Below, piece after piece: positions 22,701 to 58,419 of a stretch of 64,000 bases of DNA. The DNA is from Candidatus Latescibacterota bacterium (GTDB lineage Bacteria > Latescibacterota > UBA2968 > GCA-2709665), in the NCBI GenBank assembly GCA_965205485.1, contig OZ242180.1:1200535-1264534 (forward strand). The letters are read 5' to 3'. Under the pieces are notes generated by a model. That model saw only the letters and a list, made by a program, of their open reading frames with translations. It did no database searches and was not told the DNA's origin. The translations under genes and the position numbers were made by a program. Within the stretch, counting starts at the first letter, position 1. Each line of letters opens with the position of its first letter.

Positions 22701-23243
22701 TCGGGTTGCTATTCCCCCTGCGGCGCGATCGATCACATCTGTGCTGATATCGATGACGACGAGGTATACGTTCTGCTCGGTGTCGAAAGCCTGTTCAATT
22801 TCGTTTAGCACCTTAACGAATGTTTGGTTGAGATAGTGGCTATCCGGGTGTCGAGCACTCACGCGATGCACGAGCGGCTCACCCGTGCCGTCGGTTTCAA
22901 ATTGAAAGGTTGTGTCGTCGTAGCCACGCTCATCCATCGAAGCGGCATAGAAGGTCTGAACCTCTCGAATCCGGTCTTTCATATCCTGAACCACTTCGGC
23001 GCGAAAGGGCCGGTCACTGGGCGAAAAGTAAATCATGCGCACCGTGCGTGGTTCGCCCACGTTCAGGTTCGCCGGCCGCTTGGCTGCCGGGAGGGGGTGT
23101 TCCCGGCGCCACTCCTCGTAGTCAAAGGGTTCGTGGAAATGCACGCTGTCGGACTCAGACGTGGACGCGGAAATTCCTGCCGTCGACGTGAGCAGGACAG
23201 CCAGCAGAGTTGAATAAATGGAACTTGAAAGACGCGTTCTCAT
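19752..23243 (-). CDS. Secreted metzincin, WD40 propellers, C-terminal dockerin-like module; paralog of 3073..7428
   Basis: - Signal peptide.
- HELGHTFGLGHD with a YVMSYG Met-turn.
- About 110-aa N-terminal region homologous to 3073..7428 (EWRREHPLPAAKRPANLNVGEPRTVRMIYF).
- WD40 units.
- C-terminus ADFDGDGTVGFPDFLLFVGAYG...DLDGNGTIGFSDLLILAESFG. Confidence 0.85.
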   Translation of the reverse strand: MRTRLSSSIYSTLLAVLLTSTAGISASTSESDSVHFHEPFDYEEWRREHPLPAAKRPANLNVGEPRTVRMIYFSPSDRPFRAEVVQDMKDRIREVQTFYAASMDERGYDDTTFQFETDGTGEPLVHRVSARHPDSHYLNQTFVKVLNEIEQAFDTEQNVYLVVIDISTDVIDRAAGGIATRIGKIGGFALVTSDEMDPWNYHNVVSHELGHTFGLGHDFRHNEYVMSYGNLPDSRLSMCNAGFLAAHPYFDANSPSESGHPPSIELISPLTYPAGSTNVAVKLEVNDPDGLHQVILHVPNSVKACSVLAGERDAVVTFDYDGVIPGDWVRFSSLSEPSVHPLAVEAVDRDGNGERTRFEISELPNDVVRTTPHRLEKIDGANQRGTPGTPLERRFTVEVRDRNDNPLPDVQVAFAVAMGGGRLSGRFRLEHAVTDMNGHAGRRLTLGPRPGTNTVTVSVSGLEPVTFQAMGVGTGISLPATKGDFRTWHLPDDAIARLGKGRLSLGDRAVSFSPDGHRLAAARNIGIWTYDLATLQPAGLMPAEHLIESMAFSPDGAMIAWSERVYFDTNIKVWDTTTNTPVAGLSFLGDWGGWGRWPQGVAFSPDGGLLACVSSDNSIVMWDTGTWQRVATYEGKPSRAVLDYNPLAFSPDGRLLAAADNNHHTISLWDVAAHEKAGTLTGHKFFVRSISFSPDGQTIASGSFDRTVRLWDAATHTNLATLYGHTDDVRSVSYSPDGSTVASASSDGTIRLWDAGSHESVATLYGQTGEVRSVSFSTDGNTLVSASFDGRVDLWDVQARGIVDRIEKESATTSVAFSPLGGIFASGSDDRTITLWDVETHEKVASLEGHASGVTSLAFLRNGTLVSGAFEEIRVWDLAMGTYVAVARHFRGGCVINTLVVSPDGATVASGGRDELVLWDVATGAQSAVSVNAPLVSYAPDGSVLATKSVDGFIQLWDAATLENLNTVYQGFLGVGGNLGFLAFSPDGTTIASGTEKGPRIDSVVLLYDVATGERVATLEKPNGSQLFSGAFSPDGRILAAGSHKGTVVLWNMETLEEIATFYGHRHDVRSVSYSPDGRMLGSASDDGTMLLWDLTPYIVRPTSIADFDGDGTVGFPDFLLFVGAYGLSRGDAGYDERFDLDGNGTIGFSDLLILAESFGQGG

Positions 23244-24730: not shown

Positions 24731-27700
24731 TTATTCCCGTGATTCAGTCTCCGTGACCCTGCGGAGATTCAGGATGATGGGTTCGGGTTGATCGTGTCTG
24801 GTCCATGTGTGCTCGATCGCACAGTTGAGAGGGATCGGCGCTTCAGGTACTATCGCGATTTTTGAAGTGGATGGCAGGGTGTAGGCATCGGCCTTGGTAA
24901 CGTCGACGGTGTAGCCTAAGTCCGCCATCGACTGGATCGTGATCGCGCTGAGGGGATTGGAGAAAGTTTCCAACCTAGACGTCATCAGTTCGCCGTCCAT
25001 TACGGATTCCCGCCAGTGGCTGTCCCGGCTGCCCGCTCCGCCTGAGTTCTCCACCGGCACCTTGGCGCCGGTGTAGCTCGACCCGTCCGCTGCGTCGAAG
25101 GCGGCAATCGCCTTCGTGCCCGAAAAATAGGTATCCGGAGCCGGATCGATGGGGATTCGGAATGGGCTGAGGGAGGGGTCCTTCAGGAGGTCGAGAAATG
25201 TCCAGGAAGTGGCATTGAATCCCAGCGCGTGGCCCATCTCGTGCAGAACGACGGCTCTCTGTATTTCTTCCGAATACGTGCTCAGTATGTCCGAATCGAG
25301 AGTGATTCGGGATACGGCCGGCAGAAAGGAAGGGACCCGGCTCAACAGCGACGCCCCCTGTCCGATCGCACCGACCAGATCAACGACGCGCACGTAGAGT
25401 ATGAGATCATCCACAACCTCGGGGGCGGCAGACCCTGGAAATTCCCCATTCAGGAAACTGCGATTGCTGCTGGATAAACGATGGTTGGGAAGATCGCCGG
25501 TGATGATTTCCTCCCAGCGCTCGGCTCCGTCTTCAACATAGGTTCGGTATGTCGACGAGACGCTGCCGACGAAGACAAGCTCGATATCGAAGGAAGCCGT
25601 CCCGGACGTGGTCTCTTCGTCGGTCGCGGACCTCGAACCCATCAGGCTGCCGTCGCAGGATACCCCCAGGTATCCGTAGTCCGCCTCATACGTGGTGCCC
25701 GGCTCGAAGAAATCCGATACCGCGTCCTCCAGCGTTACGGATATGGACTGTTGCGAAGCTTCATCGTTGGTCTCGGTATGGCACCCTGTGGCCCAGGGTC
25801 CTTGGTTCGTCTTCTGACGGATTCGTACATGGTACGCCCGGGTTTCGTCGGCCGCGAAGTTGTCGGTGAATGTCAGCGTGAAGAGGTTGCCGGCGATGGT
25901 CAGGGTGGGCGCCGAAAGGGTTGGCGTCCGGACCGTGACCTCGAACGTCTCCGAGTCGGATGCACCGTATGGATCGCTCGCCGTCACGGTGATGGTCGCG
26001 CTGCCGGCGGCCTGCGGATCTACGAGGATCTCCGTGCTGATCATCTGAACGGTAGCGGCAGCCGTGTTGCCGGACGACGCGGTATAGCTGAGCAGGTCCC
26101 CATCCGGGCTGCTGAACACGCCGTCCGCGGATACGATCTCGACGGCGCCTCCCACCGCAAGCGTGAGGTCGTCGAAGGTGCCGACGGCCACCGGCGGCTG
26201 GTTGGGGATCTCGATCTCGGCCGAGGGCGACCACTCGCTGTCCCCTTCGTCGTTCTTCGCCTGTACCTGCACCTCGTAGGTAAGGCCTTTGGTCAGATTC
26301 TCGATTCGGGCATCCAGGGTCGCGGACGTGTACGTGGTACCGGTGAAATCGTCGCCGCTGTCCTTCTCCCGGTGTTGCACTCCCCAGCCAGTGATTTCCG
26401 GCCCGGTATTCACCGGCGGGATTCGGCCCCCCATGCCCACCGCGATGGTGGGAGTAGTCCCGTCTAGGAAACCCAGCCCTGGCGCCGGCGGCCGGCCCGG
26501 GGGCTCGTCCACATCGGAAACATTGATGGCGATCTGCCGTTGCCCGGTCCGTTGCCTGGTGCCCATGCCGCTGGTGACGGTAACGACGATCTCATTCCGG
26601 TTGCTGCTTCCCGCCGGACGTTCGTAGTCAGGTACATTCACGAAGGTGAGGTGGCCCTCGCCGCCCCGGGTGGCAATCTCGAACAGCGATCGGTCGCGGC
26701 CTCCGGTAAGCTCGTACCCGGTGATGTAGTCCCTGTCATCCGGGTCCGTTCCCACTATGGAAATGTGCCCGGTGAAGTTCTCGTTCACGGTCCAGGAATT
26801 GTGGAAGATGGAGGGCGGGCTGTTGGTGGTGACCGCGGTCTCCGTGACCGTCACCTCCACGTTGACGGCGGTGACTCCTTGATAGCCGCCGCTGACCGTG
26901 TGGGTCAGGATGACCTCGTCGTCATCGCTGTCGGTGTCCGCGCTGGCGCTCACGGTCACCGTCTGCGGCGTATCCCAGTCCTGGTCGGTGAATGTCAGCG
27001 GCGACGGGTTCACCGTGACATCGGCGCCCGAGGGCACGGTCACGGTCACCGTCACGTCGGCGGTGGGCTGCATGGTCAACACCACCGTGTAGGTGTCGCT
27101 GTCGTCCTCCCCGATAGTCAGTTCGGTGGGATAGATTTCCACCCCCGCTTCGGCGTCGATGACGACCAGCGGCAGGTCATCGGACAGCACCAGTTCGTAC
27201 CCGTTGTCACTCGCCGGGAGGGCCGGCAGTACCCCGAGATCGACGGTGACTGCCCCGCTGGACCCGGCGGTGCGGGAGACTGAGAGCGGCTCACTCTCGA
27301 CACTGCCCTGGGGGATCGTGATGCTCCCTTCGCCGCTGTCGATCTCACCGTTGGAAAGCCGCAGCGGCAGGACCATATCGAAGGGCGCGCCGGTGTGCGC
27401 TCTTGCGACGAACTGGTCCGTCCCCGCCGCTTCCAGTGAAACGGCAATCGGCAGCGGGTCGACCGGGTTCCATTGGAGCTGGAGTTCGTTCAGTTCCGTC
27501 AGTCCGGAAAATACGCTGTCTCCCAGTGTGGATAAGTCCATTTGTCTCAGGTCCAACGATCTCAACTCCGTCAGTCCGGAAAGAAGGCCGTCCAGTGTAG
27601 ATACATCGGTGGCTCTCAGGCTTAGCGTTCTGAGATTCGTCAGTCCGGAAAAAACGGTGTCCGGCAGTGTGATGAGGTCGTTGTTGTAGCTCAGGTTGAG

Positions 27701-30700
27701 GGTCTCGAGTACAGTCAGGCCGGAGAGGAGGTCGCCCGGCACGGAGGTGAGACCCATGCTGTAAAGTTCGAGATGGGTAAGCGCCGTCAGCCCGGAGAAA
27801 AGGGCGGCGTCGATGCTGCCGCCGGCGATCTCGTTGCGGCTCAGGGTGAGGTGTTCAAGCGACGACAGGCTTGAGAAAACGGTCGCCGGGAAGCTGGTGA
27901 GGCGGGCATATTCCAGGTCCAGGTGCTCCAGCCCCGACAGGTTCGAGAAGACGTCCGCCGGCAGGCTGGTGATTCGGGAATTGCTTATATCGAGGTGTTT
28001 GAGCCCCGACAAGCCGGAGAACTCGTCGGCCGCGAGATCGCCCAGAAGATTGTTACGGAGGACGAGTCTGTCAAGCGCCGTCAACGTGGAGAAGCCGTTG
28101 GCCGGCAGGTTGTTGATGCGGGCGCTCAGCAGATCGAGATTGGTCAGGGATGTCAGTCCGGAGAACAGGTTTACGTCGAAGTCGCCAAGTTGACTGAAGG
28201 ACATTTCGAGAGTTGTCAGTGCGGTCAGGCCGGAGAATGTGTTCGCTCCGAGATTGGAGAGGTTGTTCTGCCTGAGATGGAGCTCTTCCAACGCCGTCAG
28301 CCCGGCAAAGTCGCCAGCTTTCAACGTGGAGATGTTTTCGTCTCTCAGCGAGAGGCGCCTGATCGCGGCAAGATGGTCGGGGGTTACGTCTCCGCAGGCG
28401 CTGACCCCCGTTTCATCCACAATCGCGTCCCGCACCTGAGCGGTGCGGCTGCAGACGTCCTGGAGGTTGGTCACCGCCAGGTTGCTGAGGGCGCCGGCGG
28501 GGTTCTGCGCCCGGTCTCGGATCGGGTTGGTCCCCGGGGTGTAGGCCAGCGCCACCGTCTCGCCCGTGCTCACGGCCGAGGGCAGGGTGAGCGTCAATAC
28601 GGTATTGCTCATGGTCACCGAGGTAACGCTCCGCGCCTCGCTGTCTACGGTCACGTTGAAATCCCCCGCTGCTGGCTTCGAAGTGGCGTCGAGCCTTTCT
28701 CCGTAGGTGAGGGTCAGCTCGTCGCCATCCACTTCGGCTTTGGTGGGGGTCGGGGCTTTGCCGTCGACCTTGTGGCTGGACTGATTGGCGCGTGCCGCGT
28801 GCGCCAGGTCGGCATTGATGGTGGAATTGCTTCTGACGATACTGCCGCCGTTGCGCTTGAGACCGTTTTCTTTGATGGTGGCGCCATTGGTGTCCTCGTC
28901 GGTGTTCTGTACGGTGTATTGGAAGAGGAGTTGTGTTGTCGTCGAGCCACTCTGGTAGCCGGCCTCGCGCCGGGTGGTACCGACCGTCAGGTCGACCTGC
29001 GGCGTGCCGGTGACGGTCACCGCTTCGCTGAAGGTCACTGTTATGGAAATAACGTCACTCAATTTGTAGGTGTTGTTCTGTCCTGAGGCAGGGGTCGAGG
29101 TAAACGCGACGTTCGATACCGTGGGTGCGGTGAGGGTGGTTCCACTGCCCGTATTGGACCAGGCGCCCGTTCCTTCGTCGTTCTTTGCCTGCACCTGGAA
29201 CTGATAGGTCCTGCCCGCGCGCAGGTTCGAGAGGACGCGCGTGCGGGTCACGCTGGTGTCGGCAGAGGCGGTGAACGAGCCGCTCTCGCGGTACTGCAGG
29301 AAGTAGCTCGTGATTTCCGGACCGGTGTTGTACGGCTCGTCCCACCTTACCGTGAGGCTGCTCTCCGTGGTGTCGCTCACCACGGGCGGGGCGGGCTTGC
29401 CCGGGGGCTCCAACTCGTCCTCCACGGCAACGGTGATGGTCTGCGTGGCCGTCAGCGCCCGAGCGTCCGCCCCGCCCGTCACCTCGACTTCAACGGTGTA
29501 CTCGTTGTCGCTCCCCGCGTCCGCCGGCCGTTCAAAGTCGGGGTCATCCCTGAAGTGCAGCTCCCTGGTGTTCTTGATCTCGAAGTCGTCGCTGTCCGCA
29601 CCGCCCGTGACGACGTATCCCGTGATGCCGTCGTCCCTGTCCACGTCCTGCGCGGCCAGCTGCCCCGCCCTCAGGACGTTTTCCTTGACCATGAAACTAT
29701 CCACGCTGGTGAAGTGGGGCGGCTCGTTCACGTCCGTGACGGGCACGGTGATCGTATGCGCAGCCGTCAGCGCGCGGCCGCCCGACCCGCCGGTGGCGGT
29801 GACCTCCACGACGTAGCTGTTGTTGCTTCCCGCGTCCGCCGGACTCTCGAAGTCAGGGTCATCCCTGAAGGTCAGCGCCCCCGTGTTGCTGATCTCTAGC
29901 CTGGCGCGGTCGCTTCCGCCGGTCAGGGTGTAATCCGTGATGTTGTCAGCGCCGTCGAGGTCGTCGGCGGTGACCGTGCCGGCGAAGGACTGGTTTTCCG
30001 GGGCCTCGAGCGTCGCCTCCCCGGTGAACACGGGCGCCTCGTTCAGATCCGTCAGGTCGATGGACACCGGGATACTGCTATCGCCGCCGTGGCCGTCGGT
30101 GGCCTTCACGTTCACCGAATAACGGGACAGGACCTCATAGTCGTAGGTCCTGCCCGCCTTTGTCATGAGCTGGCCATTCCGCGTGTCGATGGTGAAGGAG
30201 TCCGCGTGTGTGCCTTCCAGCGCGTACGTCAGCGTGGTCATCTCAGCGTCGGTCGCACTGACCGGATCGCCGATGTCCTTGACGCCCGTCGTGTTCTCCG
30301 CCAGGGTGCGGGTAGCGCTGCCTCTGTCGGTAAACACGGGCAAAACGTTGGCATTGGTGTTTCCCGTACCCCGTTCCGACCAGTCGCTGGCGCCTTCGGG
30401 TGAGCGCGCCAGCACTTGCACCTGGTACCTTGTGCCCGGTGTCCTGCCCGTGATGGTTGCACTGCGTTCCGCGCTGTTGTGCGTCCACGAGGTGAAGCCG
30501 CCGCTGTCCCCTTGCCGATACTGTACGTCGTAGTCGTTGATGTCCGGGCCCGTGTTTGCCGGTTCGTCCCACGTAACCTCCAGGCTCGTGGACGAGGCCG
30601 CGGCGACGTCCGGCGCGCCCGGCGTGCCGGGTCTTTCCTGCAGGTCCGTCAGGTTGATCCTGACGGCAATCGTGTTGCTGCCGCCCTGCCCGTCTTCGAC

Positions 30701-31948
30701 GCGCACGATGACGTCATAGCGGGGCTTCGCCTCGAAGTCATAGGTCTGTCCCGACACCGTCTTTAATTGACCGTCATCCGCTCCAATTGTGAAGCTCGCG
30801 GCATCCGCGCCGGACAGGCTGTATTCCGGCGTGTCGCCATCGTGATCCCTCGCGGTGACCGGGCTGCCGACGTCGTTTGTGCCCGTCGTATTCTCGGCGA
30901 ACGAGCGTGTGGCGCTGGCCCCTTCATTGAACGTGGGCGCGCGATTGGCGCTGGTTCGAGCATCCACCGACTCCGACCAGGCGCTTTCCCCTTCGGGAGA
31001 GCGCGCCAGCACCCGCACCTGGTAGTCCGTGTTGGTCGTCAGAGAGGTGATGGTCGTACTCGTGCCGGGACCGTCGTGGGTCCACGGGGAGAAAGAGCCG
31101 GTGGTTCCTTCCCGGTATTGCACGTCGTAGTCGTCGATGGGGGGGCCCGTGTTGGCAGGGGCCGTCCAGCGGATGGAAAGGCTGTTCAGCGTCTGTGCCG
31201 TGACCGTCGGCTTGTCCGGCGCCTCGGGATCTTCGCTGTCGTCGTCGGTCACGTCGACGGTCACGTTGATCGTCGCCAGCCCGCCCTGTTCGTCCCGCGC
31301 TTCTACGGTCACGGAATAGCGGTTCTTCGTCTCGAAGTCGTAGTTTACGCCGTCAGCGGTCCGCAATTGACCGGTCCTCACATCGATGTCAAAACTCTCC
31401 GCGTCGCCGTCGGAGAGGCGGTACGTCACGGCGGTGTTCTCCGGGTCGTCCGCCCGCAACCGGGTGCCCAGGTCCTGCACACCGGTCGTATTCTCGGCGA
31501 CTTCGCGCGTGGCACTCCTTCCCTCGTCGAACACGGGCGGCAGATTGCTGCTGGTCGTGCCGAAGCCAGCGCGGGACCAGAGCGATGTCCCTTCATCGTT
31601 TGTTGCCCGAACCTGCACCTCGTACCGGGTATTGGCGTCGAGGTCGCTGATCGTCGTAGTCGTGCCCGGCCCATCGTGAGCGTGGGGGAGGAAGTTGCCG
31701 CTCTTGCGGTATTGCACGTCATAGTCCGTGATATCCGGGCCCGTGTTGTCCGGCGCGTCCCACGTCACCGTCAGGCTGGTCGTCGATGCCGGCTGCACCA
31801 GAAGCGCGGCGGGAACCTCCGGCGGCTCGTTCACGTCGGCCACGTGGATGGTCACGCCGATGGTTGCTGATTCCCCGTACGGATCGCTGGCTACCAGGTC
31901 AACGGAATACCGATCGTTATCCTCGAAGTCGTACGTGATGCCCAACAA
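24731..31948 (-). CDS. Giant surface adhesin-like protein, C-terminal 2405 aa: cadherin-like repeats, FN3-like repeats, LRR block, C-terminal HExxH zincin-like domain. It continues the gene at 31891..33012 after a frameshift.
   Basis: - Repeated ...GQL.T..G..YDFE....Y.V.V.A.D..GG.....V.I.VTDV.E.P units (cadherin-like).
- FN3-like P..P..P.V......SL.V.W..P.NTGP.I..Y.VQYR units.
- An LRR region of the form L.L..N.LS.L....FSGLT.L..L.
- C-terminal VVLHEMGHALGFNATSW. Confidence 0.8.
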   Translation of the reverse strand: MLGITYDFEDNDRYSVDLVASDPYGESATIGVTIHVADVNEPPEVPAALLVQPASTTSLTVTWDAPDNTGPDITDYDVQYRKSGNFLPHAHDGPGTTTTISDLDANTRYEVQVRATNDEGTSLWSRAGFGTTSSNLPPVFDEGRSATREVAENTTGVQDLGTRLRADDPENTAVTYRLSDGDAESFDIDVRTGQLRTADGVNYDFETKNRYSVTVEARDEQGGLATINVTVDVTDDDSEDPEAPDKPTVTAQTLNSLSIRWTAPANTGPPIDDYDVQYREGTTGSFSPWTHDGPGTSTTITSLTTNTDYQVRVLARSPEGESAWSESVDARTSANRAPTFNEGASATRSFAENTTGTNDVGSPVTARDHDGDTPEYSLSGADAASFTIGADDGQLKTVSGQTYDFEAKPRYDVIVRVEDGQGGSNTIAVRINLTDLQERPGTPGAPDVAAASSTSLEVTWDEPANTGPDINDYDVQYRQGDSGGFTSWTHNSAERSATITGRTPGTRYQVQVLARSPEGASDWSERGTGNTNANVLPVFTDRGSATRTLAENTTGVKDIGDPVSATDAEMTTLTYALEGTHADSFTIDTRNGQLMTKAGRTYDYEVLSRYSVNVKATDGHGGDSSIPVSIDLTDLNEAPVFTGEATLEAPENQSFAGTVTADDLDGADNITDYTLTGGSDRARLEISNTGALTFRDDPDFESPADAGSNNSYVVEVTATGGSGGRALTAAHTITVPVTDVNEPPHFTSVDSFMVKENVLRAGQLAAQDVDRDDGITGYVVTGGADSDDFEIKNTRELHFRDDPDFERPADAGSDNEYTVEVEVTGGADARALTATQTITVAVEDELEPPGKPAPPVVSDTTESSLTVRWDEPYNTGPEITSYFLQYRESGSFTASADTSVTRTRVLSNLRAGRTYQFQVQAKNDEGTGAWSNTGSGTTLTAPTVSNVAFTSTPASGQNNTYKLSDVISITVTFSEAVTVTGTPQVDLTVGTTRREAGYQSGSTTTQLLFQYTVQNTDEDTNGATIKENGLKRNGGSIVRSNSTINADLAHAARANQSSHKVDGKAPTPTKAEVDGDELTLTYGERLDATSKPAAGDFNVTVDSEARSVTSVTMSNTVLTLTLPSAVSTGETVALAYTPGTNPIRDRAQNPAGALSNLAVTNLQDVCSRTAQVRDAIVDETGVSACGDVTPDHLAAIRRLSLRDENISTLKAGDFAGLTALEELHLRQNNLSNLGANTFSGLTALTTLEMSFSQLGDFDVNLFSGLTSLTNLDLLSARINNLPANGFSTLTALDRLVLRNNLLGDLAADEFSGLSGLKHLDISNSRITSLPADVFSNLSGLEHLDLEYARLTSFPATVFSSLSSLEHLTLSRNEIAGGSIDAALFSGLTALTHLELYSMGLTSVPGDLLSGLTVLETLNLSYNNDLITLPDTVFSGLTNLRTLSLRATDVSTLDGLLSGLTELRSLDLRQMDLSTLGDSVFSGLTELNELQLQWNPVDPLPIAVSLEAAGTDQFVARAHTGAPFDMVLPLRLSNGEIDSGEGSITIPQGSVESEPLSVSRTAGSSGAVTVDLGVLPALPASDNGYELVLSDDLPLVVIDAEAGVEIYPTELTIGEDDSDTYTVVLTMQPTADVTVTVTVPSGADVTVNPSPLTFTDQDWDTPQTVTVSASADTDSDDDEVILTHTVSGGYQGVTAVNVEVTVTETAVTTNSPPSIFHNSWTVNENFTGHISIVGTDPDDRDYITGYELTGGRDRSLFEIATRGGEGHLTFVNVPDYERPAGSSNRNEIVVTVTSGMGTRQRTGQRQIAINVSDVDEPPGRPPAPGLGFLDGTTPTIAVGMGGRIPPVNTGPEITGWGVQHREKDSGDDFTGTTYTSATLDARIENLTKGLTYEVQVQAKNDEGDSEWSPSAEIEIPNQPPVAVGTFDDLTLAVGGAVEIVSADGVFSSPDGDLLSYTASSGNTAAATVQMISTEILVDPQAAGSATITVTASDPYGASDSETFEVTVRTPTLSAPTLTIAGNLFTLTFTDNFAADETRAYHVRIRQKTNQGPWATGCHTETNDEASQQSISVTLEDAVSDFFEPGTTYEADYGYLGVSCDGSLMGSRSATDEETTSGTASFDIELVFVGSVSSTYRTYVEDGAERWEEIITGDLPNHRLSSSNRSFLNGEFPGSAAPEVVDDLILYVRVVDLVGAIGQGASLLSRVPSFLPAVSRITLDSDILSTYSEEIQRAVVLHEMGHALGFNATSWTFLDLLKDPSLSPFRIPIDPAPDTYFSGTKAIAAFDAADGSSYTGAKVPVENSGGAGSRDSHWRESVMDGELMTSRLETFSNPLSAITIQSMADLGYTVDVTKADAYTLPSTSKIAIVPEAPIPLNCAIEHTWTRHDQPEPIILNLRRVTETESRE

Positions 31949-44672: not shown

Positions 44673-46076
44673 ATGGGAAATAGCAAGATGCGGCTGGCGA
44701 TTTGCGGGATCAGGCACGAAACGAATACCTTCTCCCCGTTGCGCGCGGGCATCGAGGATTTTGACGTCCTGCGCGGAGATGAAATACTCGCCGACGGACC
44801 CTGGCAGGCCGTCGCCAACGTCGAATGGGCGCCCACGCTGGTTTCAAAGGCACAGCCGCACGGGCTGGTCCTCATGGACGCTTACGAGTCCATGGCAGCA
44901 GAAATGGTGGAACGTCTGCACCAGGCATCTCCGGTGGACGGCGTGTACCTGGATCTGCACGGCGCGATGGAGATTGAAGGCCTGGGCGACGGGGAACGCG
45001 ACCTGGTATGCCGCGTGCGCGAGGCGGTCGGCGATGAAATACCGATCGTCGCCAGCCTGGACCTGCACGGCAATCTCGCGCCCGAGGTGGTGGAGAAGAC
45101 CAATGTGCTCACCGCACTGCGGACCGCGCCTCACGTGGACCGGCGAGAGACGCAGGCGCGCGCGATCGGACACCTCGTCCGTTGCGTGAAAGAAGATATC
45201 CGCCCGGCAAATGCCATCGTAAGGCTGCCCATGCTGCTTCCCGGCGAACACGCGGCTACCGGAGTGGAGCCCGCCCGGTCCCTGTATGCAGAACTCAAGG
45301 AGATAGAAAGTCAGCCGGAGATTATGGATGCGTCGATCATGATCGGGTGCGCGTGGACCGATTCGCCGTTTACGTCCGTGGCCGCTATCGTGGTTTCGGA
45401 GAACAGTAAGACAGCCGGAGAACACGCGGAACGAATGGCGACGGAAATCTGGCGGCGACGCCATGAATTCGCTCCGGATGTGTTAACGCTGCCGGTGGAA
45501 GACGTCGTTCAGCGCGCGATGCGGGAGATCCGGCATCCCGTGTTCATTTCCGATTCCGGCGACAACGTCACGGCGGGCGCGGCCGGCGATATCCCGCTCG
45601 TCCTGAAATCGCTGCTCGAGGCCGGCGCCCGGGATGCGGTTGTCGCCGGGATCGCGGATGCCCCGGCGGTCGAGGCGTGTATCGACGCCGGTGTCGGCGC
45701 TGTGCTGACTCTCACGGTGGGCGGCAAACTCGACAGGGTCAATGGATCTCCTGTGGAGGTGACCGGCCGGGTCGTGTCGATGAATCCGCCGAGGATCGTC
45801 GTGTTCCAGGTGGACGGCGTCAGGGTGGTTTTAACGGCTGACCGCATGCCGTTCCTGGACCTGAGGGCCTTTGAAGAGGCAAACGTGAACCCAACGGAAC
45901 ACGAGATCGTGGTTGTGAAACATGGATACCTCGCACCGGAACTCAGGGAAATAGCAGGAACGGCGTTGATGGCGGTCAGTCCCGGATGTACGACCCTGGC
46001 TCTGGAGACGCTGCCCTATGCAAGGATCCGGCGGCCGGTGTTTCCACTGGACGAGGACGTCGTATTCTCTCACTGA
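44673..46076 (+). CDS. MlrC-like (peptidase family M81, microcystinase C homolog) protein
   Basis: N-terminus MRLAICGIRHETNTFSP is characteristic of the MlrC/DUF1485 N-domain. About 460 aa. Confidence 0.8.
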   Translation: MGNSKMRLAICGIRHETNTFSPLRAGIEDFDVLRGDEILADGPWQAVANVEWAPTLVSKAQPHGLVLMDAYESMAAEMVERLHQASPVDGVYLDLHGAMEIEGLGDGERDLVCRVREAVGDEIPIVASLDLHGNLAPEVVEKTNVLTALRTAPHVDRRETQARAIGHLVRCVKEDIRPANAIVRLPMLLPGEHAATGVEPARSLYAELKEIESQPEIMDASIMIGCAWTDSPFTSVAAIVVSENSKTAGEHAERMATEIWRRRHEFAPDVLTLPVEDVVQRAMREIRHPVFISDSGDNVTAGAAGDIPLVLKSLLEAGARDAVVAGIADAPAVEACIDAGVGAVLTLTVGGKLDRVNGSPVEVTGRVVSMNPPRIVVFQVDGVRVVLTADRMPFLDLRAFEEANVNPTEHEIVVVKHGYLAPELREIAGTALMAVSPGCTTLALETLPYARIRRPVFPLDEDVVFSH

Positions 46077-48796
46077 TGGAACCCAGGATGATCTTGATCT
46101 GTATAATATTGGCCCTCGCGATCCTATTGAGCTTGATACCTGAACGGCTGAACGCTGAACCGGTATTTCGGCCCGATGTCGACCGGAGTCACGTTGCGGG
46201 TCTGAAGCATAGCCTGGCGCCCCTGATGGCGTTGTCAGAAGACGAACTGGCGCGGTTGATTCCGGACCGGTCCGGTTTCCGGTTTGTGGATTGCCCGAAT
46301 TGCGAGGGGGGCGCCGAGGAGAATCAGCTGACGTGGTCGATCGAGGATCCCGACCGCGTCTTCTGCCTGTTCTGCGGCATGTGGTTTCCCAACGAGGTCT
46401 ACCCGGAAAACGGCGTGAAACGGGTGACCAATCCTCGGGGCGAGATCCAGGAGTATCCGTACTGGGAAGCCCCGTTTCCCCCGCCTGCGCAACTGCCGCG
46501 ATCGCTTTCTCATATCGAACCCGATACGAAGTACCGTCACTATTTCCGGGCCAAGGGATGGTACGTCGCCCGGGAATATTTCTCCGATGCGGCGAATCGC
46601 CTCGGGAAGCTCTATCATCTGACCGGGAATCCTTCGTTTGCGCGTAGAGCGGCGTTGATCCTGGACCGGTTCGCCCGGGTTTACCCTGGGTATTGCCCAA
46701 GGTTCGATCCCGCGTTCCGCCAGAAGGTGATTTTCGAGGGGGATCGCTCCTTTCCCTTTCCGGTGTCGCCGTATCTGGCGGCAAAGTGGGACTATTGGGC
46801 GTATGGCGATATACCTTATAACCTGATCTTCGCCTACGATCTCGTTCGAGACAGCGGACAGGTGGACGACGCGATGCGCCGGCGAATCGAGGACGATCTG
46901 ATTCGCGGCAGCGTTTCCTTTGTGCGGTCGTATCCGATTACGCTGAGCAATATGGACCCTGCGATCCTTCGGGGCCTGATTTCCGCCGGGCGGGTCCTCG
47001 CCGAGCCGGCGTACGTGCACGAAGCCGTGCAGTGGATCGGCGACCTGATCCGGAAGCAGTTCTTCGTGGACGGGATGTGGCGGGAAACGGCGGTCTCGTA
47101 TCACAATCAGACGGTGAACGGACTGGCCGACGTAATGGACCTGCTGAAAGGGCATAGCGATCCGAAGGGATATGTCCATCCGGAAAGCGGTGCGCGTTAC
47201 GAGAATCTGGATCTGTCTGGCCGGTTTCCGCTCTTCGAAAGAGCCAGGCGGATTCCGGATCTACTGCGATACCCCAACGGTCGGGTTGTTGCGGTGCACG
47301 ACACGTGGGCGCGGGAGCATCGCACGCCCACCGAATGCTCCAGCCCCTGGCTTCTTGGCGGCTCCGGACACGCATGGCTGGGGCGGGGCAGCGGCGCGAA
47401 CCAGATGCAGGCGCACCTGCACTTTTCGGGAGCATACGGACACGCGCACGCGGACCTGCTGAGTATCACCCTGTTTGCACACGGACAGGAGCGACTGTCC
47501 GATATCGGATATACCTGGACCCACCAGCGGCAGTGGGCGTCGAGCACGCTGTCGCACAGCACCGTCGTTGTAGATGGCGAGGACCAGGCGCGGGGCCATG
47601 AAAGCAACCCGTCCGACGGCAACCTGCTGCTGTTTGTACCGGGAGACAGCGGGTTTCAGGCGGTGGCGGCGCAGGGCAACCGGGCGTATCCGGGGGTCGT
47701 ACGGGACTACACCCGTCTGCTGGTGATGATTGGCGTCTCGGCGCAGGATGCTTACGTGGTCGATGTGTTTCAGGTTGACGGTGGAGAGCGGCACGACTTC
47801 GTGCTGGTGGGAGACGCGAATAACGACGGGGCGATCGAGACGGAACTGGATCGATCGCCGTATGGTGAGACGCTGCTGCCGCCCGGGGTGAAGGTCGTCC
47901 TGCCCAGCGGCGAGACCGTACCCGGATATGCGGAGGGACACAATTTCGCCTATGCGTACGTGAGGGACGTGCGCCGGGCGGGAATCTCCGCCCCATGGAA
48001 GGTGGTCTTCACAAGCGAGGGAGAACCGGAGGGCGGGGTGCGCGTTCACGGGATTTCAGAGCTGGATGGGGAACTGTTGTTCGGGAGCATGCCATCGGTC
48101 CGGCGGGCGGAGGAGAGCGAAGGCAGGCTGGATGATTATACCATGCCTGCGTTGATCCACCGCCGGGAGGGGAAGGACCTCTCCAGCGAATTCGTGAATG
48201 TGCTGGAACCGTTCGGTGAAGCGCCGTTCTTGCGCTCCGTGGAGATGCTGGACAGTGACTCCGACGGTCTGACGCTGAAGATTGAAGGCGTCGATTATAC
48301 GGACTTTCTTCTCCATAGCAGGGAAGGAAGACGAGTGGTTGAGGGAGATATCGTACTGGTTGGCCGCATCGGATTCGTGCGTGAGCGGGACGGCGCCGTT
48401 GAGAAAATGACCCTGGTGGGCGGATCACTCCTGCAAAAGGGCAATGTCATACTTGCGGGAGAAGGCGTCTTCGAAGGCGCGATCCTGGGTGTTTTGCGAA
48501 AGGAAAGTGGTTCGGCTGTTAACGGACTGGTTGTGGACGGCGATGTTCCGGAGGGAGAAGGGTCAGAGGATCTGACTGTCGTGGTCAACGACGGCGCCGG
48601 ATTTTCGCTTGGCCTCAGGTTGTCGGATGTTGTGAGACAGGACGGTAGGACGGTTCTCGTGCTGGCGGACGATCCCGGTTTCGAAATGGAACCGGACGGC
48701 ACGAGCCGGCACGTCTATTTCCCGCGCCGGTCCTGGACCGGAGAGAATCGATATGAGATCATGGACGTGAGGCATCGACTCATGCCGGGTCGTTGA
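46076..48796 (+). CDS. Heparinase II/III-like polysaccharide lyase family protein (membrane-anchored/secreted)
   Basis: - N-terminal hydrophobic segment MILICIILALAILLSLIP.
- C-terminal GHAHADLLSITLFAHGQ matches the H-x-H-x-D...SF.L motif of Hepar_II_III domains.
- Its ATG overlaps the MlrC stop (TGATG). Confidence 0.7.
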   Translation: MEPRMILICIILALAILLSLIPERLNAEPVFRPDVDRSHVAGLKHSLAPLMALSEDELARLIPDRSGFRFVDCPNCEGGAEENQLTWSIEDPDRVFCLFCGMWFPNEVYPENGVKRVTNPRGEIQEYPYWEAPFPPPAQLPRSLSHIEPDTKYRHYFRAKGWYVAREYFSDAANRLGKLYHLTGNPSFARRAALILDRFARVYPGYCPRFDPAFRQKVIFEGDRSFPFPVSPYLAAKWDYWAYGDIPYNLIFAYDLVRDSGQVDDAMRRRIEDDLIRGSVSFVRSYPITLSNMDPAILRGLISAGRVLAEPAYVHEAVQWIGDLIRKQFFVDGMWRETAVSYHNQTVNGLADVMDLLKGHSDPKGYVHPESGARYENLDLSGRFPLFERARRIPDLLRYPNGRVVAVHDTWAREHRTPTECSSPWLLGGSGHAWLGRGSGANQMQAHLHFSGAYGHAHADLLSITLFAHGQERLSDIGYTWTHQRQWASSTLSHSTVVVDGEDQARGHESNPSDGNLLLFVPGDSGFQAVAAQGNRAYPGVVRDYTRLLVMIGVSAQDAYVVDVFQVDGGERHDFVLVGDANNDGAIETELDRSPYGETLLPPGVKVVLPSGETVPGYAEGHNFAYAYVRDVRRAGISAPWKVVFTSEGEPEGGVRVHGISELDGELLFGSMPSVRRAEESEGRLDDYTMPALIHRREGKDLSSEFVNVLEPFGEAPFLRSVEMLDSDSDGLTLKIEGVDYTDFLLHSREGRRVVEGDIVLVGRIGFVRERDGAVEKMTLVGGSLLQKGNVILAGEGVFEGAILGVLRKESGSAVNGLVVDGDVPEGEGSEDLTVVVNDGAGFSLGLRLSDVVRQDGRTVLVLADDPGFEMEPDGTSRHVYFPRRSWTGENRYEIMDVRHRLMPGR

Positions 48797-55507: not shown

Positions 55508-56278
55508 TCACGGCATCCAGATATTCCACTTGCCGTGCTTTTCCCAGATGCGGCAGGGGTCGCAGGTACACATCCACCGGATTGCGAAACGCGGTTTGCT
55601 GCCTGTATTGAGCGACCCGGCGTGTACCAGCAGGTAATGAAAGAACAGGACGTCGCCCCGGGACGGCGTCAACTCGATCGGCGCGCTCAGATCGAACTTT
55701 TGCGTTGGGTTCTGCAAATCCGGCAGCATGCGAAACCTGTCGGGATCCCGCACCGCCCCATCTCTGAGCGTACGATGCGAACCCGGCCAGACTGCCGTTC
55801 CGCCACCCTGCGCGACACCGGAATCGAGATACGTCAGCGACGAGACGCGGAATGATCCGGGAAAGATGCTGAACGGTCGATGTACGCCATCGGCATGCCC
55901 GCTGTGGTGACTCCAGCTTCCCGACACCGGAAATACGCTGCGCGTCCACACCGCCTCCGGCTGAGGTCTCTGGCAGCGAAACGCCGCCTCATTCTTGCGG
56001 GCTAGCTGGCTCTGCACGTCGTAAAACGCGGGAGTACAACATGCCAGCAACTCAGGGTCCTTGAGCCCGAAATGTTCAACCACCCCCTGGCTGGCCACCG
56101 TCGTTACGCCATCGGCATTGTCCGGTAAAGGAGACCACGAAGCCGGATCGTCCCGATCCATACCGAGGACAGACCACATCGTTTCCTCCGCGCCAGCGAT
56201 TGTTGTTTCCGGAATCAGCCCCGACACCATCACGTACCCGTCCCGGTCATATTGTGCAATCTGCGCTTGCGAAAGCAT
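55508..56278 (-). CDS. Phytanoyl-CoA dioxygenase (PhyH) family Fe(II)/2-oxoglutarate oxygenase
   Basis: N-terminal LSQAQIAQYDRDGYV. H.D and a distal H consistent with a 2-His-1-carboxylate facial triad. Confidence 0.7.
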   Translation of the reverse strand: MLSQAQIAQYDRDGYVMVSGLIPETTIAGAEETMWSVLGMDRDDPASWSPLPDNADGVTTVASQGVVEHFGLKDPELLACCTPAFYDVQSQLARKNEAAFRCQRPQPEAVWTRSVFPVSGSWSHHSGHADGVHRPFSIFPGSFRVSSLTYLDSGVAQGGGTAVWPGSHRTLRDGAVRDPDRFRMLPDLQNPTQKFDLSAPIELTPSRGDVLFFHYLLVHAGSLNTGSKPRFAIRWMCTCDPCRIWEKHGKWNIWMP

Positions 56279-56504
56279 GGACGTCTCCTGGATAGAAGGA
56301 CATTCGGGTAGACCTTGAGTGTCGTCCCATATAATATCGGTCGATCGAACACCTAAGACACACTATCCGTCGTCAACACGGTATTCAACAAGGAAGCATC
56401 AAAACACTTCGCCGCTTCAATGTTTGTTGAAGAGATCTCACGTGCCTAACATCGGCCGGTCCCTGACTCTGTGCGAAATCGAAGATCGCATACCGAAGCG
56501 TGGT

Positions 56505-56573
56505 CATTGAGCTTGTCGAAATGCCCGCGCTTCGATATCCTGTGCCGACCCTTCGACAAGCTCAGGGAGCGGC
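56505..56573. repeat. Family 2 intergenic element copy
   Basis: cattgagcttgtcgaaatgcccgcgcttcga...cccttcgacaagctcagggagcggc is about 90% identical to the ends of 51886..51964. It has inverted arms gagcttgtcgaa / ttcgacaagctc. Confidence 0.6.
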
Positions 56574-56737
56574 CCAGGATACTCGCGCCCATTCATGGAG
56601 GGCCCCCTAAAGGGGGACAGGTTTGCTTCGGCGCCGATCTCGGTACGAGACAGTTCGTCGAAGTCATACGCGAGACTCCTCGTTCTTCATAGCGCGTCCC
56701 ATCTTGGGAACATATTTTGAACATTGCCAGACCCACG

Positions 56738-57037
56738 CTATTCGAACGTCGCGACGTGATCAAGATTCATGCTTGAAATTGAACCTTCCTCATAGCAGGA
56801 ATACCAATCCGCGGCATTTGGGATATTGACCATGTCTGCTTGCGCGTTCTTCGCGTCGCCCTCTGATTCCCAGTAAACGACGTCGGTATAGCCTCCATCG
56901 CTGTTCCGGTGAATCTCCCACTTAATGAAACCTGGCTGTCTGCTCATCCAGTTCACCAGGACCTGACGTGCAACGTTTAGTAGGTGTTCCTCGGAGATAT
57001 TCTCTGCCAACTGGTAACTGATGATGTCTTTATACAT
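56738..57037 (-). CDS. Small hypothetical protein (99 aa)
   Basis: ORF with lower-GC composition than its neighbours. No motif recognised. Confidence 0.35.
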   Translation of the reverse strand: MYKDIISYQLAENISEEHLLNVARQVLVNWMSRQPGFIKWEIHRNSDGGYTDVVYWESEGDAKNAQADMVNIPNAADWYSCYEEGSISSMNLDHVATFE

Positions 57038-57633
57038 TATTCGCTATCCCTTGATTCCAGGTGTTCGAGTATTTCCTGCTGTTCGGCCAGATCGAACTGA
57101 CTCGATCCGATGTACGTATATCTGATCACGCCGCGTCTGTCGACGATGAACGTCGCCGGACGGGCAATGCTGTTGCTCAACCCGTGATTCGCCAGGCCGG
57201 TCCATTCATGCAGGGCATAGCCGAGTTTGTCGATGACAAACGTCGCGGGACGGACGATGGTGTAGGCGACGTTGTGCATCGCCAGGGCGAACCAGTGGCG
57301 TACCCCATAGCTCCTGATGACACTCCAGTCTTCGTCCGCCAGAAGCGGAAAGGTGATCCCGTTGCGTTCGGCGTATTCGCGCATCTCGCCCGGCGGCTGT
57401 CCTGCGCCAACGGCAATCGACGTCGTTTTTCTTTCTGCGTACGCTTCGATATGTTCCTGAACGATCGCCAACTGACGACGCGTTCTCCGTCACCAGGTCC
57501 CCCGGAAAAACGTCAGAACGACGTTTTCCTTGTGCCGATACGACGCCAGCGACACCTCTCGTTGCTGGTGCGACCGGAGCGTGAACAAGGGGGCGGGGTC
57601 ACCGACACTGAGGGCCCTGCTTCTTCGCGGCAT
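57037..57633 (-). CDS. Peroxiredoxin/thioredoxin-fold (AhpC-TSA or TlpA-like) protein with a single in-frame TGA at the redox Cys position: candidate selenoprotein, or else a pseudogene
   Basis: ATG at 57633. Reading frame MPRRSRALSVGDPAPLFTLRSHQQREVSLASYRHKENVVLTFFRGTW-[TGA 57492..57490]-RRTRRQLAIVQEHIEAYAE...GITFPLLADEDWSVIRSYGV...ARPATFIVDRRGVIRY. The TGA sits where Prx has T..C and TlpA has WC..C. A hairpin GAACG-C-GUCG-(UCAGUUGG)-CGAU-CGUUC begins 4 nt after the UGA. Confidence 0.5.
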
Positions 57634-57660
57634 TTTGTACTCTTCTGAGGACCTTCACCT

Positions 57661-58419
57661 ATGGACGGCGAATTGTTGCACCGGGGTTTTGTCCCCGGGC
57701 CGCTGACGCCCGAGCAATGCGATGCGCTGGATGCCAACGGCTTCGTCATTCTTGAATGCGTCATTGCTCCCGGCTGGCTGGCGGGGCTGCGCCAGGCTTT
57801 CGACGTGATCTTCGCCAGCGAAGGCGACAAAGCCGGTGTTGAAGTTGCCCAGATGGAGGGCGTGCGCCGCCTGGCCGACCTGGTGAACAAGGGGACGGTC
57901 TTCGACAATGTCTACCTGCAGCCGACGCTGCTGACGGCGGTGTGGCACGTGCTCCAGCGGCCGTTCAAGCTGCACTCGCTCAACGGACACGATCCGCTGC
58001 CCGGCAGCGGGTTGCAGGGCTTGCACACGGATTGGGGCGGGCCAACTGAGCCTGGCGGACCGTATCACGTCGTCAATTCGATGTGGATGCTCGACGACTT
58101 CACCCGGGTCAACGGCGCGACCCGCTGCGTTCCCGGAAGCCACCGCAAGCCCGGCAGAGCCTCGGACCACGTAGCCGACTCCATGTCCGATCACCCGGAC
58201 CAGGTACAGCTGACGGGCCGCGCCGGCTCGATCGCCGTCTTCAATGGCAGTCTCTTTCACAGCTCGTACCGCAACCTCAGCGACGCCCCCCGCCGCACCC
58301 TGCACTGCGCCTTTATCGCCCGAGAACACGCGCAGCAAACGAACCAGCGCGAGTACCTGCGGCCCGCAACCGCCCGTCGGATCTCGCCGCTCGCACGCTA
58401 CATCCTGGACGTGGAGTGA
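57661..58419 (+). CDS. Phytanoyl-CoA dioxygenase (PhyH) family oxygenase
   Basis: GLHTDWGG (H.D) and a distal SLFHSS His. About 250 aa, typical PhyH size. Confidence 0.7.
   Translation: MDGELLHRGFVPGPLTPEQCDALDANGFVILECVIAPGWLAGLRQAFDVIFASEGDKAGVEVAQMEGVRRLADLVNKGTVFDNVYLQPTLLTAVWHVLQRPFKLHSLNGHDPLPGSGLQGLHTDWGGPTEPGGPYHVVNSMWMLDDFTRVNGATRCVPGSHRKPGRASDHVADSMSDHPDQVQLTGRAGSIAVFNGSLFHSSYRNLSDAPRRTLHCAFIAREHAQQTNQREYLRPATARRISPLARYILDVE

Follow-up and report, generated by a model that had tools for sequence, protein, structure and literature searches.

A stretch of 64,000 nucleotides (nt) from a Candidatus Latescibacterota bacterium (contig OZ242180.1 of assembly GCA_965205485.1, positions 1,200,535 to 1,264,534; here called the window, in whose numbering all coordinates are given) contains a redoxin gene on the minus strand that is broken by one in-frame TGA. 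The question raised by this locus is whether the UGA ends translation, marks a damaged gene, or directs the insertion of selenocysteine (Sec) into a redox protein. The analysis described here indicates that this is very probably a genuine Sec-encoding gene, that its product is an AhpC/TSA redoxin with Sec at residue 48, and that it belongs to a class of predicted selenoproteins that is already catalogued. This reading is supported by the conservation of the TGA, by coding constraint on both sides of it, by the presence of cysteine (Cys) in the same column in relatives, and by a conserved hairpin compatible with a Sec insertion sequence (SECIS).

The interrupted gene encodes an AhpC/TSA-fold redoxin

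Analysis of the minus strand revealed a coding sequence of 198 codons followed by TAA (57037..57633). The frame runs from the ATG at 57633 to the TAA at 57039..57037, and its sole interruption is the TGA at codon 48, located in the context VVLTFFRGTW-*-RRTRRQLAIVQEH. The same open reading frame (ORF), with the TGA at 57492..57490 as the only break, had been reported in the original prediction, which was made from the sequence alone. With Cys placed at codon 48, the product matched Pfam AhpC-TSA (PF00578) over residues 10 to 138 with an E value of 3.5e-26 (92 bits versus a cutoff of 26) and also matched Pfam Redoxin. This result bears out the earlier description of the gene as a clean redoxin apart from the TGA. 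No match to glutathione peroxidase (PF00255) or to the deiodinase-like family (PF00837) was found in Pfam at an E value of ≤0.01. The NCBIfam model of a SelL-related redox protein (NF040769) gave 45.5 bits against its cutoff of 120, and none of the NCBIfam models reached its own cutoff with the window protein. The gene contains no Cys codon. Its product, a cytoplasmic member of the AhpC/TSA superfamily with a thioredoxin fold, has no signal peptide or other leader. The start ATG and the N terminus MPR[KR].. are kept in 15 orthologs.

The TGA is conserved between two constrained coding segments

The in-frame UGA at codon 48 (57490..57492, minus strand) has C as the next nucleotide (UGAC). Seven loci (L001 to L007) were obtained by scanning species-representative genomes; they are labelled Gemmatimonadota (four), Latescibacterota (two) and Poribacteria (one), several of them with sponge-type names of metagenome-assembled genomes (MAGs). 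TGA was present at the equivalent of codon 48 in all seven, and the protein was conserved on both sides of it. LTFFRGTW and YIGS[SH]QFD served as seeds for a scan of metagenomes that yielded 32 loci, in which the codon after the W was TGA in 31 cases and TGT in one (L032, with the motif WCPYC). Contigs reached via truncated database proteins (L040 to L043) carried TGA at codon 48 in 4/4. Over the RGTW-U family as a whole, TGA was found at the equivalent codon in 42/42 other fetched loci, which came from sponge-type MAGs, metagenomes and read assemblies. Together with the window, these make 43 TGA loci from independent assemblies, with protein identities ranging from 26 to 93%. Orthologs were present on the complete chromosomes OZ242358.1, OZ220733.1 and CAXXEU010000002.1, and the closest relatives (≥75% identity) belonged to MAGs or metagenomes whose names suggest a sponge origin. 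The position of the TGA is far beyond chance.

Comparison of codons 1 to 47 among 15 orthologs revealed pairwise differences at the first, second and third codon positions in the proportion 833:649:2381. Because these differences lie mainly at third positions, the segment upstream of the TGA is translated in this frame, and it evolves under purifying selection. Public annotation presents a different picture: all close homologs in the protein database are fragments of 109 to 157 amino acids (aa) that begin after the TGA, and on two contigs, gene callers split the gene into pieces of 47 aa and 109 to 112 aa. Random decay had been judged unlikely in the original prediction, and the fixation of TGA in 42 other loci, the constraint on both halves and the lack of any other frame break agree with that judgement.

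The predicted Sec stands in the column of the first cysteine of a CxxC motif

The redox motif U-R-R-T (57481..57492, minus strand) was placed by alignments with orthologs, Cys-containing relatives and AhpE. An exhaustive HMMER search of 1.84 billion representatives, with the C-terminal 150 residues as the query, returned only 194 matches at an E value of ≤0.001. The column of the Sec is occupied by Cys in L032 and in seven database relatives (P0128, P0129, P0134, P0137, P0144, P0149 and P0163), so the check by alignment with Cys homologs suggested at the outset confirmed the identity of the column. The nearest full-length relatives carry the hallmarks MPRKN..L.IGD.AP.F, YNIARPxTF and Y[IV]GSxQFD and the motif RGTW-C-P-x-C-R-[RK]-Q. 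Since full-length relatives contain W-C-P-x-C, taken as the ancestral form, Sec stands in for the nucleophilic Cys that comes first in a CxxC motif of the thioredoxin type. The other Cys of this motif has been lost in the Sec clade. One relative, P0128, has W-C-P-H-A and is the 1-Cys counterpart of a W-U-P-N-A clade. No Cys ortholog closer than about 40% identity was found among the 1.84 billion representatives.

The fourth position of the motif is Thr51 in the window protein, Ser in the closest orthologs (UxxS) and in the Poribacteria type, and Ala in L019 to L023. Other clades have UPNS or UPNA, and the Cys relatives have CPxC. The second Cys or Sec that defines a UxxC or UxxU motif is missing from U-R-R-T and from the Cys-free product as a whole.

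The original prediction had offered two placements for the UGA, the catalytic Cys of TlpA-like W-C-x-x-C proteins or that of the T..C motif of peroxiredoxins (Prx). The W-C-x-x-C option holds, as the Cys relatives use the same column; the Prx option does not, as Sec aligns to the Thr of T-x-x-C. The residue aligned with the peroxidatic Cys of the BCP/PrxQ types and of Mycobacterium tuberculosis AhpE is Thr51, and the peroxidatic Cys or Sec of the canonical PxxxTxxC motif (Prx, BCP/PrxQ, AhpE) is thus absent from the window protein. Arg158, in ARPATF, lies one column off the active-site Arg of AhpE and BCP in the alignments. The Cys relatives of the subfamily do show the W-C-x-x-C trait of the PRX_like2 type (cd02970), with their second Cys aligned to the peroxidatic Cys of BCP.

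Two distant relatives deviate at the motif. P0130 (127 aa) has Asp in the Sec/Cys column (LRGSW-D-P-N-S-R) and may be a non-redox paralog, and P0142 (139 aa) begins after the motif.

A small conserved hairpin follows the UGA

Folding of the mRNA with RNAfold gave the structure GAACG-c-GUCGUC-[AGUU]-GGCGAU-CGUUC, which begins 4 nt past the UGA (centroid, -13.2 kcal/mol). Its core is the hairpin GUCGUC-AGUU-GGCGAU with a 6-bp upper stem (57464..57479, minus strand), recovered by RNAfold, covariation and RNAalifold. In the window, a lower stem GAACG/CGUUC and a bulged C extend the core to a stem-loop of -11.7 kcal/mol (57459..57485, minus strand). The hairpin 4 nt past the UGA that had been predicted earlier therefore exists, although not with the proposed 4-bp upper stem and 8-nt loop, for which RNAfold substitutes the better 6-bp stem and AGUU tetraloop. 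The core stem begins 10 nt downstream of the UGA, and the spacing between the UGA and the loop is 16 nt. The published bacterial SECIS (bSECIS) model specifies a loop of 3 to 9 nt with G among its first two positions, an upper stem of 4 to 16 bp, a UGA-loop spacing of 16 to 37 nt and a minimum free energy of -7.5 kcal/mol or lower (PMC13188914). The window hairpin satisfies this model with its AGUU loop, 6-bp stem, 16-nt spacing and energy of -11.7 kcal/mol. The 6-bp core includes G-U pairs and by itself is weaker than -7.5 kcal/mol, so a strict scan limited to ungapped stems did not accept the window hairpin; a bulge-tolerant scan did.

To the fold of the single sequence, comparison of orthologs adds conservation and covariation. 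Within the UxxS/T clade, 95% pairing of the 6-bp helix was seen across 20 distinct sequences, with compensatory changes in two of the six pairs (U-A to C-G in six sequences and U-G to G-U in one). The covariation score was 0.286 versus 0.209 for shuffles and was matched by none of 500 shuffles, and RNAalifold recovered the same helix. Synonymous diversity in codons 52 to 56 was 0.52 bits compared with a gene average of 1.04 bits, the third lowest value of 95 windows along the gene. The loop codons Gln54 (CAG) and Leu55 (TTG) were invariant in 15/15 sequences, compared with four codons in use for Leu40 and a 7:7 split for Gln59. A register shifted by three columns in pair sum, with a UCAGU loop, was also considered; it gave 88% pairing and no covariation signal, and the AGUU register was preferred.

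The lower stem is specific to the lineage. It is built by the window's own codons for Thr51 (ACG) and Val58 (GTT) and is missing in L001 and L002. Other subfamilies, which differ in peptide and nucleotide sequence, carry hairpins of their own 19 to 21 nt past the UGA with the loops GGU, GGC or UGUAU. Examples are CGUAUAUG-GGU-CAUAUACG in L019, GCAGCUC-GGC-GAGCUGC in L024 to L031 and, in L034, L036 and L039, stems capped by UGUAU or GGU. The occurrence of differing hairpins at a similar distance is the behaviour expected of bacterial SECIS elements.

Counterevidence and alternative explanations

Several observations weigh against the Sec reading. Searches of the window and L001 to L039 by tblastn with approximate query sequences of Escherichia coli SelA, SelB and SelD gave no match. 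ARAGORN reported no tRNA or tRNA-Sec in the window and L001 to L007, and Rfam at gathering thresholds reported nothing in the 64-kb window. The geometry of a bacterial SECIS, as claimed in the original prediction, does agree with the published model; the hairpin taken alone is not unusual. The 66-nt fold had a z score of 0.16 versus shuffles, and a qualifying hairpin followed 42% of the TGA triplets in the window with the permissive bSECIS implementation used. At such a background rate the hairpin alone is weak evidence. It is statistically unremarkable in a GC-rich window, and its weight comes from conservation and covariation. It is also small, with an RNAalifold consensus energy of just -3.9 kcal/mol, and in L001, L002, L005, L007, L008, L010 to L012 and L018 it misses the limit of -7.5 kcal/mol in this implementation. 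The invariant TTG of Leu55 is the start that gene callers choose for the truncated product, so part of the codon conservation has another possible reading. As to function, the role proposed below is deduced from motif logic, and the operon context around the gene gives no clue to function or substrate.

Support for Sec machinery stands at the level of the lineage and comes from the literature. SelA and SelB clusters of orthologous groups co-occur in most symbiont bins of the sponge Aplysina aerophoba (Slaby et al. 2017, PMC5649159), and SelA, SelB and SelD are listed for Gemmatimonadetes bins 43 and 94, Poribacteria bins 70 and 44 and Poribacteria WGA-3G (PMC5649159, Table S4). The same study found SelA/SelB to be enriched in sponge symbionts and did not name client proteins. 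Sec-containing hydrogenases have been reported in Poribacteria (2026 study). Two homologs of the window gene (L009 and L016) are contained in MKWU01, an Illumina-only metagenome assembly of A. aerophoba.

A pseudogene, or an assembly or sequencing error in which TGC or TGT has mutated to or been misread as TGA in a dead gene, would account for a lone nonsense codon, as expected of early decay or error, and for the truncated proteins under which the orthologs appear in public annotation. The conservation of TGA in 43 loci from independent assemblies excludes both versions for practical purposes, and purifying selection on both halves and the otherwise undisrupted frame leave such an origin with a negligible probability. 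The UGA could also be a true stop that separates a 47-aa peptide from a protein of about 143 aa starting at TTG codon 55, the latter acting alone or the two forming a split redoxin. Precisely these two products are predicted by gene callers, and the TTG is invariant. The cut, however, would sever the thioredoxin fold between its first strands and the active-site helix, which is unlikely to leave a protein able to fold; there is no evident ribosome-binding signal; the break coincides every time with the column that holds the redox Cys in Cys relatives, which are themselves single full-length chains; and the invariant TTG forms part of the apical loop of the conserved hairpin and of the base pair that closes it. 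We consider termination at this codon highly improbable.

Recoding of the UGA as something other than Sec, by near-cognate tRNAs that insert Cys or Trp or through a lineage-wide reassignment, is scarcely more credible and is likewise rated as very unlikely. UGAC is a weak terminator in E. coli, and the presence of this context in most orthologs would favour leaky read-through. TGA is nonetheless the commonest ordinary stop in the window, where it terminates 13 of the 22 large ORFs, including neighbours conserved in syntenic loci, which argues against a general reassignment. Leaky read-through would leave unexplained both the strict conservation of TGA, in preference to synonymous-like codons, across diverse lineages and the conserved hairpin downstream, and related lineages carry SelA, SelB and SelD.

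Proposed decoding and catalytic cycle

On the reading of UGA 48 as a Sec codon, the small stem-loop with its 6-bp stem and AGUU loop, 10 nt past the UGA, would recruit SelB and Sec-tRNA, and codon 48 would be decoded as Sec. As the protein contains no Cys and the second Cys of the motif is replaced, it would have to act as a "1-Sec" enzyme. In the cycle that we infer, the selenolate would attack an oxidant, such as a hydroperoxide, or a disulfide, and a selenenic acid or a mixed selenenylsulfide would form. This intermediate would then be resolved by an external thiol, for which a glutathione-type thiol, thioredoxin or glutaredoxin may serve. Such a cycle would be analogous to that of glutathione peroxidase (UxxT) and to the one used by 1-Cys peroxiredoxins, AhpE among them.

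A more specialized role can be imagined for a Cys-free, obligately Sec-dependent clade in which a lone selenolate on a Prx-like scaffold performs a reaction other than that of a peroxidase, linked to the sponge host. Examples would be the detoxification of host-derived electrophiles and a reductive dehalogenation, of the deiodinase kind, of bromotyrosine metabolites. We regard this proposal as far-fetched and keep to a predicted 1-Sec redoxin of the known class.

Relation to known selenoproteins

Prx-like proteins of the AhpC/TSA type that contain Sec have long been recognized as predicted selenoprotein families, and the window gene is best filed there. The closest description is that of a predicted prokaryotic selenoprotein family of AhpC/TSA type with the reference MDX2448127.1, listed in a 2026 review (PMC13188914, citing Zhang & Gladyshev 2007). 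The window gene resembles this family in its AhpC/TSA fold, in Sec as the first residue of a CxxC-derived motif and in a coding-region bSECIS right after the UGA, and the Ser at the fourth position of that family matches the U-R-R-S and U-P-N-S of the orthologs. The window gene may belong to this family, from which the window copy would differ in having UxxT and its clade in having U-R-R instead of U-P-x. It would differ further in a 34-residue insertion with a 30-codon tandem repeat of an RPATF strand.

Selenoproteins called "Prx-like thiol:disulfide oxidoreductase" or "Prx-like 1" (PF00578, UxxC) were described by Zhang and Gladyshev in 2005 to 2008 (PMC2398784), and the Prx-like 1 family (pfam00578, UxxC) comprised 225 sequences in the Global Ocean Sampling survey (PMC2398784). 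The window protein has the same Pfam family and the same Sec column. Prx-like thiol:disulfide oxidoreductase selenoproteins reportedly go back to Kryukov and Gladyshev in 2004. Among the fetched loci, L024 to L031 and L033 to L039 are of the UxxC type, with the motif U-P-[FY]-C, and share the LTFFRGTW pattern. This type keeps the resolving Cys and in many cases has an N terminus resembling a signal peptide, whereas the window protein has neither Cys nor leader. A hydrophobic, signal-peptide-like N-terminal extension was observed in the U-P-[FY]-C metagenome loci L024 to L031, L033 and L037, which in this respect resemble exported Sec oxidoreductases of the TlpA/ResA kind and differ from the window protein with its lack of a leader.

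The best sequence match in the Protein Data Bank was the 1-Cys peroxiredoxin AhpE of M. tuberculosis (Rv2238c; entries 1XVW and 4X1U), with an E value of 6e-17. The two proteins share the fold and the N-terminal VGDxAPxFTL segment, and both would rely on one redox residue that an external reductant regenerates. They differ in that the peroxidatic Cys45 of AhpE aligns with Thr51 of the window protein, the window Sec falling on an AhpE Thr three residues earlier, in that the column of the Prx Arg is shifted by one residue (ARPATF in the window versus ANRGTF in AhpE), and in that AhpE contains no Sec. Glutathione peroxidase carries UxxT on a thioredoxin fold. The window protein is like it in having Sec at the first position of CxxC, Thr at the fourth and no resolving Cys in the motif, and probably in recycling by an external thiol; the likeness is an analogy of working mode, and without a PF00255 match it does not amount to membership by sequence.

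Features specific to the clade appear to be the U-R-R-[ST] motif, the insertion in which RPATFxxD is repeated, and the lack of close Cys orthologs. A literature search found no paper that describes selenoproteins of sponge symbionts. For annotation, the consequence is that dozens of entries of the clade stand as truncated "redoxin domain-containing proteins" of about 110 to 157 aa or as split 47-aa fragments, where single selenoproteins of about 165 to 200 aa would be correct. The locus adds a concrete predicted selenoprotein to MAGs labelled Gemmatimonadota, Latescibacterota and Poribacteria, several of them from sponge-type bins. It also provides what appears to be a natural case in which Sec was gained and the resolving Cys was lost (CxxC to UxxS/T), a useful one for asking why enzymes with a thioredoxin fold exchange Cys for Sec. 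Current understanding of how bacteria decode Sec is unchanged; the result corrects annotation and introduces no new principle.

A clade-specific insertion contains a tandem repeat

Direct comparison of copies revealed a 30-codon tandem repeat, the first copy of which (codons 126 to 155; 57169..57258, minus strand) lies inside the 34-residue insertion. The repeated strand motif is RPATF[VI][IV]D, present as IVRPATFVID at residue 126 and as IARPATFIVD at residue 156. The copies IVRPATFVIDKLGY and IARPATFIVDRRGV are identical at 31 of 42 nt and 8 of 14 aa. A general repeat-finding scan of the window did not report the tandem repeat, which was seen by direct comparison. The U-R-R-[ST] clade has the insertion, which is longer in P0044, P0046 and P0121 and is missing in the Poribacteria-type proteins and in the Cys relatives.

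Genomic surroundings

Downstream of the selenoprotein gene lies a 99-codon ORF (56738..57037, minus strand), the ATG of which overlaps the stop codon of the selenoprotein gene (TAATG). Its best domain match, ABM, had an E value of 0.01, below the cutoff. The ORF is possibly cotranscribed with the selenoprotein gene. It was found in L001, L003, L004 and L007 and was missing in the syntenic loci L002 and L008, which indicates a loose link. A gene for a PhyH-type 2-oxoglutarate (2OG) dioxygenase is divergent from the selenoprotein gene (57661..58419, plus strand), and a second PhyH-type 2OG dioxygenase is encoded at 55508..56278 on the minus strand. Other neighbours encode an L-PSP/RidA-like protein and a PQQ-repeat protein.

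Only 27 nt (57634..57660) lie between the start codon of the selenoprotein gene and that of the divergent PhyH-type gene, so both promoters must sit within adjacent coding sequence. A search of 56500..58000 gave no sigma-70-like site. Poribacteria-type orthologs (L010 to L016) have a textbook TTGACA-N17-TA(T/C)AAT promoter in the 45 nt upstream of the ATG (e.g., L016, 710..754 of that locus). Its -10 box ends 6 to 8 nt before the ATG, which suggests that the mRNA of these orthologs may be leaderless or nearly so.

The GC content of 56001..58000 is 0.566, below that of most of the window (about 0.60 to 0.64). The selenoprotein gene itself has a GC content of 0.586, and its GC content at third codon positions is 0.71 compared with 0.77 to 0.82 in neighbours. 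The window was also screened for a second selenoprotein gene. This screen gave 187 pairs of ORFs bridged by TGA, far too many to be informative in GC-rich DNA, and after filtering by GC content at each codon position only antisense-looking frames remained.

Elsewhere, the window contains a cluster of giant eukaryote-like proteins in a style typical of sponge symbionts (3073..7428, 12840..14900, 15124..19755, 19752..23243 and 24731..31948 on the minus strand and 45986..48796 on the plus strand). The cluster includes three WD40-repeat proteins of 1163 to 1543 aa, one of them with an additional Peptidase_M60 domain, and a protein of 2405 aa that combines fn3, cadherin and LRR domains with a leishmanolysin (M8) domain. 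An LRR protein and a heparinase II/III-like protein are also encoded there.

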